64,000 nt of DNA from the NCBI GenBank assembly GCA_947244325.1, contig CAMXJY010000002.1:26070-90069 (forward strand), read 5' to 3'. The notes beneath the pieces are model-generated. The model was not told the origin of the DNA. It saw nothing but the letters and a program-made list of their open reading frames with translations, and ran no database searches. The DNA comes from an uncultured Clostridium sp. (lineage in GTDB: Bacteria > Bacillota > Clostridia > TANB77 > CAG-508). The position numbers were made by a program, and so were the translations under genes. Shown one piece after another: positions 55,796 to 56,007 of this stretch (position 1 is the first letter of the stretch; every line of letters begins with the position of its first letter).

Positions 55796-55830
55796 AAATG
55801 GTGCAATTTTATTTGCACCATTTTTATTTA
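55796..55830. terminator. Hairpin terminator
   Basis: aatggtgcaa-ttttat-ttgcaccatt with flanking T-runs. Confidence 0.55.
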
Positions 55831-56007
55831 TTTTATAGGAAAGTGCTTCGCACTTCCTATAAAATAAAGGCTTCGCCAACTTTTGTACATTTCTTAGCTG
55901 TGTGAAACAAAGTGAACTACAGATAAGTTATGTGCATCGAACAAAAACGTGGACGAGTCAGTAAAGTTTTGTCTTTTTCATATTAAATATCGTCCACTAT
56001 TGTTCTA
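55829..56007 (+). repeat. Structured intergenic repeat, copy D (the cleanest full-length copy)
   Basis: ttttataggaaagtgcttcgcacttcctataaaataaag ... cttagctgtgtgaaacaaagtgaactacagataagttat ... cgtggacga[35-nt T-rich loop]tcgtccactattgttct. Confidence 0.8.

Follow-up and report, generated by a model that had tools for sequence, protein, structure and literature searches.

The DNA analyzed here (hereafter the window) is a 64,000-nucleotide stretch of contig CAMXJY010000002.1 from an uncultured Clostridium sp., and the subject of the analysis is a family of intergenic repeat elements of roughly 180 nt, four copies of which (A, B, C and D) are found in the window. The genes neighboring these copies encode the N-terminal half of a transketolase (tkt), an ftsE-like ABC ATPase, a RelA/SpoT-like protein, a U32 peptidase and dapB; the transketolase is 88% identical to one from Candidatus Scatovivens faecipullorum. 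The G+C content of the window is 23-30%, and almost all of its genes are on the + strand. Since the GC skew is uniformly positive (+0.20 to +0.31), the whole window is placed on one replichore with the + strand as the leading strand, and all four copies follow the leading strand. An earlier interpretation made from the letters alone (the sequence-only reading) had described four full, near-identical copies with a three-part consensus, carrying the signature of a structured RNA and lying upstream of unrelated genes. Homologous elements were recovered at all four of its positions, all of them on the + strand and intergenic. The unrelated flanking genes that it had named (tkt, ftsE-like, U32 peptidase and dapB) were likewise confirmed, except that dapB is convergent with D and is not a same-sense downstream gene.

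Copies A, B and D are full, but C is rearranged and lacks the palindrome, and "near-identical" overstates the resemblance, as pairwise identity is only 60-88%. A (minus its insert) is 88% identical to D, B is 84% identical to D, A and B share 80%, and C shares 60-68% with the others. The 21-mer CATTTCTTAGCTGTGTGAAAC occurs three times in the window against an expectation of zero, and shuffled sequences give none. The palindrome, core and 3' hairpin of the three-part consensus are all present; A, B and D, however, have four parts, namely a P1 palindrome, a small 9-nt hairpin (P2), a core that forms the middle of a long hairpin, and a long 3' hairpin (P4), in this order, and the core turned out to be a separate module. 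P1 reads TATAGGAAAGTGC-nnn-GCACTT(C/T)CTATA (3' arm also written GCACTTCCTATA), and P4 terminates in CTATTGTTC. Copy D is a complete composite of 176 nt at 55830-56005 (+), in which P1 lies at ~55829-55866, P2 at 55869-55877, the core hairpin at 55889-55932 (extended stem 55884-55936), and P4 with its T-rich end at 55939-56005. Limits drawn by homology place copy A (221 nt, core 16638-16730) at 16578-16798 and copy B (175 nt, core 24450-24493) at 24392-24566, both on the + strand. When the A-D sequences were read through, no conserved coding potential was found, and the 176-nt carrier, that is, P1, P2 and P4, has no terminal inverted ends.

Copy C (~53973-54144, +) begins with a P1 remnant (TATAGGA) joined to a remnant of the core 5' end (CATTTCTTAG), which is followed by a second core, a linker and P4. 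This second core (54015-54057) is complete, has other flanks and carries compensatory stem changes (CCTAGCTGT/ACAGCTAGG), and it scored 62.4 bits with R1, a covariance model of the core; a polymorphism within copy C was also found in L017 (L-numbers label the related loci that were compared with the window). Two linker types and two P4 types occur in all four combinations among the four window copies, which indicates recombination among copies, that is, mosaics. A solo P4-type fragment (AGAACAATAGTGGATGA-loop-TCATTCACTATTGTT) lies at 24343-24393 (+), where it abuts B directly past the stop codon of the open reading frame (ORF) at 23748-24338, and it matches the 3' halves of P4 in A and D at 82-87% identity. 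The core apex of A holds an additional mini-hairpin of 41 nt (16663-16703), which shows up as a 49-column insert in alignments and has perfect 13-bp inverted ends (ATATTCTAACTGT / ACAGTTAGAATAT). This hairpin is flanked by ACGAAGT (16656-16662) and ACAAAGT (16704-16710), which resemble a 7-bp target duplication (6/7 match), and a weak reverse-strand R1 match covers 16661-16703.

Evidence on the mobility of the composite came from orthologous regions retrieved through homologues of the U32 peptidase. Copy D is an exact 176-nt insertion between ...CATTTTTATTT, the T-run of a terminator, and TATAATA..., and the site is empty in L030 (97% identity of the U32 protein) as well as in L028 (85%), where the U32 terminator runs straight into TATAAT. 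As the more distant L028 is empty there too, the most economical interpretation is that D was inserted in the lineage leading to the window. The terminator scan placed the intrinsic terminator of the U32 peptidase gene at 55790-55829 (+), which L030 and L028 also have at their unoccupied sites, and D starts at the next base after its T-run; similarly, a terminator after ORF 15875-16531 was placed at 16552-16575 (+), and A starts where the T-run ends, 2 nt past the scanned stem. All of the left ends examined (13/13) were preceded by a hairpin with a T-rich tail, with no fixed motif seen, and nearly all copies sit shortly downstream of a co-oriented gene. Target-site duplications, which the sequence-only reading had proposed to look for, are absent from D, whose junctions allow no shift, but repeats of 7-8 bp accompany some insertions of the core. 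Other sites varied as well. The core at site C is absent in relatives too, a copy that follows rplQ in L030 is missing from the window, and contigs of the window's species from two assemblies end at D. At site A, the orthologue in L067 (94% identity) has a carrier without the core and that in L068 (88%) a decayed carrier; the core-less carrier in L067 indicates that the carrier of A is old and that its middle was exchanged.

Copy D folds far better than shuffled sequences, with z = -6.2 for the + strand folded as RNA, -6.0 when folded as DNA and -4.5 for the - strand. As the sequence-only reading had reported, the 3' stem (P4) varies from copy to copy while its pairing is preserved: the stem sequences number at least six, all of them pair, and P4 folds in every copy. 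The interior of P1 covaries as well (GTGC/GCAC, TTGC/GCAA, GTTC/GAAC), and a GCC/GGC to GGC/GCC swap distinguishes P2 of B and D. The lower stem CUUAGCUGU/ACAGAUAAG is nearly unvarying in the alignment of 39 distinct core copies, in which pair 14-78 is AU in 14, GC in 11, GU in 2 and UU in 11, and pair 15-77 is UA in 20, CG in 17, UG in 1 and CA in 1. The positions next to pair 15-77 are always G.A and then A.G, a T is bulged on the 3' side in every copy, 32 copies have a G.A mismatch at position 9-84 where the other 7 have G-C, and 17 of the 39 have a C(GNA)G apex. The covariation score of this alignment, which was selected in part by our own search patterns with positions 14, 15, 77 and 78 left free or two-fold degenerate, was 0.125 compared to 0.074 in shuffles; none of 500 shuffles reached 0.125, and the signal collapsed in slid registers.

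Which strand and which nucleic acid would fold is a separate matter. G-U/U-G cells outnumber A-C/C-A cells 9 to 2 in the core, an excess that mildly favors the + strand as the folded strand and fits RNA and DNA alike. The G-T(U) wobble reported for A is present (GTGGACGA / TCGTCTAC), but the argument that it requires a plus-strand RNA holds only weakly and does not distinguish RNA from top-strand DNA. C(GNA)G triloops and tandem sheared pairs of the Py-GA-Pu type are classic stable mini-hairpin motifs of DNA, as in d(GCGAAGC), so that the core fold is as plausible in single-stranded DNA as in RNA. The claim that such covariation marks a structured RNA under selection is therefore not supported in the form given, since hairpins of single-stranded DNA that serve in transposition should show this pattern too, as should inverted repeats to which a single protein binds. 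As a side observation, the 3' half of P1 (55849-55870, 24411-24432 and 16597-16618) has a family consensus, ACTTCCTATAATATA, that agrees with the dif site of Bacillus subtilis, ACTTCCTAGAATATATATTATGTAAACT (PMC3025954), at 14 of its first 15 nt. P1 could thus be described as two dif-like half-sites placed tail to tail, perhaps an AT-rich coincidence or perhaps a binding site for a tyrosine recombinase.

With its own distribution and its own insertion signature, the ~42-nt core is an independent hairpin module. It has the form TTTC-TTAGCTGT...ACAGATAAG-TTAT, with 9-bp imperfect inverted ends, the invariant tandem G.A/A.G and often the C(GNA)G apex, and its terminal inverted repeats (CTTAGCTGT / ACAGATAAG, 8/9) are found in all 39 distinct copies. 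With R1, four strong copies (57-73 bits; D 72.6), one clear copy and two weak copies were detected in the window, and 45 copies, the 39 distinct ones among them, over 279 kb of related loci. The core occupies at least five different contexts and lies on either strand relative to neighboring genes. An inverted carrier in L008 (~6905-7085) has P1, a long P2 and P4 without any core, and at its core-less junction, GCGCGCGAAC|AAAGACGCGGAC, L015 holds a 50-nt core insert. In B and D the core precedes the GCACNNNGAAC-AAAGAC segment (the GCRCACGAAC segment), whereas in L015, L034 and L047 it follows it. Elsewhere the core lies in the loop of another hairpin, at GGGGA|CGTT (L002, L004, L011 and L038), inside an unrelated miniature inverted-repeat transposable element (MITE) with 20-bp perfect inverted ends (L036 and L055), or as an inverted doublet (L014). 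In L052 the core is bracketed by AGCGAAGT on both sides (8/8), and the unfilled paralogous site GTCATGGTGAGCGAAGTCGAACC is present in L054; flanking duplications were also found in L037 (7/8) and L005 (8/9). Strong flanking repeats of this kind accompany 3 of 46 core copies, compared to 0.65% of mismatched controls. The recurrent target of the core, CGAAG, at which the hairpin nested in A is also inserted, is the same motif as its own apex.

The range of hosts is wide. A degenerate pattern of the core was found in 15 loci of ~9 metagenome-assembled genomes (MAGs) of uncultured gut Clostridium/Clostridia and in 24 metagenome contigs, confirming conservation in relatives, and the description of a dispersed family of the REP (repetitive extragenic palindromic)/BOX/MITE kind was borne out by elements that are multi-copy, intergenic, hairpin-forming and spread over related loci. 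AT-rich relatives carry the whole composite architecture with the same ends (ATATTATAGGAAAG ... CTTTTGTTC); the ~42-nt core alone is shared by ~13 GC-richer contigs from a single metagenome (Ga0123355), where its flanks are wholly different and include the MITE of L036 and L055. No Rfam family explains the element. At the gathering threshold only the transfer-messenger RNA (tmRNA) was matched in the window and only one tRNA in 20 related loci, and an E-value search of D returned chance-level matches only. Likewise, D had no match by blastn in plasmid and phage collections or by pattern scan in viral contigs, and a full-text literature search for the core sequence returned only unrelated primer matches. 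Two oddities of one MAG were also recorded: head-to-tail 60-nt units containing the core occur at two of its contig ends (L009:4973-5146 and L006:1-60), perhaps a real array or perhaps an assembly artefact, and a 387-residue ORF in L006 takes its final codons and its stop from the core.

In order to identify an enzyme, the core-bearing loci were searched with 144 Y1 proteins by tblastn, and no match was found. The core ends of a same-ended parent insertion sequence (IS) of 1-2.5 kb would be TTTCTTAGCTGT...ACAGATAAGTTAT; the sole candidate pair with CTTAGCTGT ends, in L045, lies inside a coding ORF and was rejected. Genes for a PD-(D/E)XK "transposase" (PF12784, PDDEXK_2) adjoin two copies, at L007:60-1004 and L008:4969-5436, in one MAG only (CAOKJC01). 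Sister species, however, carry a 250-residue Y1_Tnp gene (L028:760-1512, L056 ~4001-4765, L060 ~4001-4753 and L063 ~2818-3594), the top NCBIfam match of which is the REP-associated tyrosine transposase (RAYT), at 62 bits and below the 80-bit cut-off. The gene is single-copy and syntenic (glycoside hydrolase 15 - Y1 - radA), with 56-61% identity between species, and it is always flanked by inverted TTGGGGACGTT-N5-9-GGACAWTTTTGTCC, which forms a hairpin (TTGGGGACGTT...GGACATTTTTGTCC). The same hairpin is also dispersed (L056:1834 and L015:6667), and L015 carries window-type elements too. A RAYT-like gene with flanking and dispersed hairpins is the hallmark of a REP-RAYT system, and judging from sequence this looks like one, apparently undescribed in this clade of Clostridia; RAYTs of Group 1 have been reported in Clostridia (PMC5581495). 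The 5' arm of P4 (A-GACG-N-GGACATTT; GACG-N-GGACATTT) resembles the RAYT-flanking hairpin, a resemblance only and no more than a lead. No link between this gene and the window elements was found; its presence in sister species makes an enzyme of this kind plausible.

Taken together, the ~180-nt units are probably non-autonomous, non-coding mobile DNA repeats of the MITE/REP class, a composite of carrier and core in an AT-rich lineage of uncultured gut Clostridia related to Candidatus Scatovivens, and a new, undescribed family. This explanation builds on the observed repetition and modularity of the units, their presence or absence at orthologous sites, the insertion junctions and the pair-preserving changes. 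The carrier (P1, P2 and P4, ending in T-rich CT(A/T)TTGTTC) would insert without target duplication immediately 3' of a terminator T-run, pointing the same way as the upstream gene and, in the window, as the leading strand. Because it makes no duplication, is strand-specific, targets a T-run and has subterminal hairpins, the carrier may move as single-stranded DNA through an enzyme of the HUH/Y1 type (RAYT or IS200/IS605-like) acting in trans. The core would have entered the carrier secondarily, as it also occurs alone, in other repeats and in other bacteria, several times with 7-8-bp duplications; its inverted ends and these duplications suggest movement by a staggered-cut (DDE-like) transposase. 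Copies would then diverge, swap modules by recombination and keep their hairpins through paired substitutions. In read-through transcripts the inserted hairpins may serve as extra terminators or 3' stabilizers, like REP, BOX and Correia elements.

Several observations weigh against this explanation. No transposase was found beside any copy, in the window or in the related loci, where apart from the two PDDEXK_2 genes of one MAG the neighbors are housekeeping genes, and an autonomous parent IS with the same ends was not found in ~370 kb of related loci. The window has no copy of the RAYT-flanking hairpin, and cores are missing from the loci that carry the RAYT-like gene. For the composite there is one clean filled/empty pair only (D), and the carrier is kept at site A in relatives of 94% and 88% identity; some copies therefore turn over slowly, as would likewise be expected of a functional element that is retained. 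No target duplication is recognizable at most core copies, with similarity that is decayed or missing around many of the older ones. Finally, the 42-nt core is nearly invariant across distant hosts, with unpaired and mismatched positions included, which hints at a specific structure or a protein-binding function. This conservation goes beyond the need of a simple inverted-repeat MITE, so that a structure-specific protein could still be involved. The conserved oddities are the invariant tandem of predicted sheared G.A/A.G pairs, the bulged T and the G.A mismatch in the lower stem. On these grounds we put forward, tentatively and as a possibility that we hold to be rather doubtful, that the core (TTTC-TTAGCTGT-RY-GA-A...C(GNA)G...GA-RY-T-ACAGATAAG-TTAT) is an undescribed, exceptionally small hairpin element common to distant gut bacteria, which would home into C(GAA)G mini-hairpin motifs including its own apex and ride on several unrelated repeat families, and which would be recognized in folded form (DNA or RNA) by a specific enzyme or binding protein, and would not be an ordinary inverted-repeat MITE.

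The same conservation of folds would also be expected if the units were structured small-RNA genes, either trans-acting or associated with 3'-UTRs or terminators, with P2, the core and P4 under selection for RNA folding and P4 plus its U-rich tail acting as a terminator. The better fold of the + strand, the compensatory changes in every stem, the excess of G-U over A-C cells in the core, the co-orientation of all copies with transcription and the long retention of the carrier at site A all agree with this, as does P4, which despite its long loop resembles an A-tract/stem/U-tract terminator (classic in L005). We nevertheless consider it unlikely as the primary explanation, for several reasons. 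No consistent -35/-10 of the sigma-70 type was found on the + strand inside A, B or D, and each copy begins right behind a host terminator, so that its transcription would need read-through. D is a clean, recent insertion, copies are mosaic and are gained or lost between near-identical genomes, the core is optional, has unrelated sequences around it and lies on either strand with respect to neighboring genes, and Rfam gave no match. The small-RNA and mobile-DNA explanations are compatible and do not exclude each other. A cis-regulatory leader (riboswitch, T-box or attenuator) of downstream genes is suggested by three of the four copies, which lie 130-330 nt upstream of a co-oriented gene. D, however, lies between convergent genes and thus cannot be a leader, close relatives have empty sites, the genes that follow the copies are unrelated, copies in other genomes follow unrelated housekeeping genes and no Rfam leader was matched; the position of D and the empty orthologous sites effectively refute this alternative.

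It might also be proposed that the unit is a miniature remnant of an IS200/IS605 element, a palindrome-associated transposable element (PATE), the right half of which (core plus P4, up to the element end) would act in trans as scaffold for a guide RNA of the TnpB/IscB type (omega RNA). PATEs are miniature IS200/IS605 derivatives that move as single-stranded DNA, and the window element resembles them in being strand-specific and without target duplication, in its subterminal hairpins at both ends, in its leading-strand orientation and in its insertion 3' of a short T-rich motif; moreover, the end of its structured 3' half (~120 nt) coincides exactly with the boundary of the element. The end hairpins P1 and P4, however, are unrelated in sequence, unlike ends of the IS608 type, the target is a terminator T-run and not a defined tetra- or pentanucleotide, and the core, which some carriers do without, is itself an insertion accompanied by target duplications. 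Furthermore, no tnpA or tnpB lies beside any of ~50 copies, no same-ended IS200/IS605 partner was found and the viral and plasmid collections held nothing. With its unlike end hairpins and no tnpA found, the family fails strict membership of the IS200/IS605 PATEs, and we regard the omega RNA version as very improbable.

A number of more specific candidates were considered and rejected. GTG-initiated frames in P4, as for a small peptide or type I toxin, have 13-40 codons and differ in length, and C has GTC in place of the start. A peptide within the core (ATG/GTG AAA CGA...) is contradicted by the TCGA subtype, which has no start codon, and coding leaves the R/Y covariation unexplained. The hammerhead-like motif of the core (CUGANGA...GAAA) has one extra nucleotide and no three-way junction, and a K-turn was dismissed because pairs 14-78 and 15-77 covary, so that there is no 3-nt bulge beside the G.A pairs. 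Size, ends and the lack of an Rfam match speak against group II intron domain 5 or a class C intron. A bridge-RNA mini-element of IS110, an IS91/Helitron-like element, an integron attC and a parS site do not fit in insertion sites, ends or symmetry. A sigma-54 or sigma-70 promoter in P1 was set aside, as no consistent -35/-10 was seen on the + strand.

Among known systems, the REP/REPIN elements and their RAYTs have been described in Pseudomonas and E. coli (PMC3116915, PMC3337134 and PMC5581495). The family resembles these in its short extragenic palindromic hairpins mostly just after genes, its long persistence and its mosaics and arrays, and the sister species contribute a single-copy, vertically inherited, syntenic Y1 transposase gene with inverted flanking hairpins; an inverted doublet of cores occurs in L014 only. 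The window elements differ, however, in being 175-221 nt long with four different hairpins and not a doublet of one REP, and in having no GTAG-type 5' tetranucleotide. The RAYT-like gene of the sister species is flanked by a hairpin other than those of the window, and no Y1_Tnp gene is near any core copy. With neither a cognate flanked RAYT nor a doublet, the family fails strict REPIN-RAYT membership.

Bacterial MITEs, including composite and nested ones, comprise Correia/NEMIS, RUP, BOX, ERIC and Bacillus bcr1. Like them, the window family is non-coding, shorter than 300 bp, multi-copy, intergenic and hairpin-forming, and its core has inverted ends, in some copies 7-8-bp duplications, and a habit of nesting in other repeats. 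Unlike them, the core at ~42 nt is below the typical MITE size and its whole sequence is kept across distant hosts, including the tandem G.A, the 176-nt composite is inserted without duplication, and the ~370 kb searched held no parent IS with the same ends; the core thus agrees with the MITE definition in part. Class C group II introns of bacteria insert right after the T-run of intrinsic terminators in the direction of transcription. The likeness to them is confined to this target and direction, as the window elements at 176 nt are far too small, have no GUGYG...AY ends and gave no match to Rfam Intron_gpII.

Diverged relatives of the core were also found elsewhere in the window. The clear copy noted above is a reversed, diverged core hairpin at 60708-60750 (-; R1 32.8 bits, E = 4e-5), directly 3' of the tmRNA (60338-60692, 168 bits). 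The 3' end of the tmRNA, CCTCCACCAAAAAA at ~60684-60697, is repeated at ~60756-60769, and the two copies bracket ~57 nt that hold this hairpin. A similar set, consisting of an att-like copy of the tmRNA end, a reversed core-like hairpin and a second partial copy, lies 1.7 kb beyond the tmRNA in L028, and L030, L031 and L024 have integrase-bearing islands in the corresponding region after the DHDPS (dihydrodipicolinate synthase)/tmRNA locus. Directly after the hairpin lies a 389-residue ORF (60784-61953) that had no Pfam or NCBIfam match. By blastn, a 37-nt stretch running from the second tmRNA 3'-end copy into the start of this ORF is repeated at 84% identity at ~61952-61988, before ORF 61977-62930. 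The two weak copies are tentative. One, at 37805-37848 (+; R1 21.8 bits, E = 0.02), starts at the stop codon of ORF 36981-37808; the other, at 41665-41702 (+; R1 18.6 bits, E = 0.11), reads AAGTTAGCTG...CAGATAACTT without the GA motif and lies at the stop codon of ORF 41129-41668. Both host ORFs belong to the ribosomal-protein cluster, and in both hairpins the stem is kept through swapped pairs (C-G to G-C).

The window thus carries an unannotated repeat family of poorly known uncultured gut Clostridia, which breaks assemblies at D and could be mistaken for small-RNA genes or riboswitches; in a mobile palindrome, compensatory changes do not by themselves prove that the element functions as RNA. 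Termination and mRNA stability may also be altered, should the elements supply additional hairpins and T-tracts downstream of genes. Overall, the nested design, with a carrier behind terminators, a 42-nt hairpin in the loops of mini-hairpins and a RAYT-like gene in sister species, offers a tractable case for the spread and persistence of miniature elements in compact AT-rich genomes.

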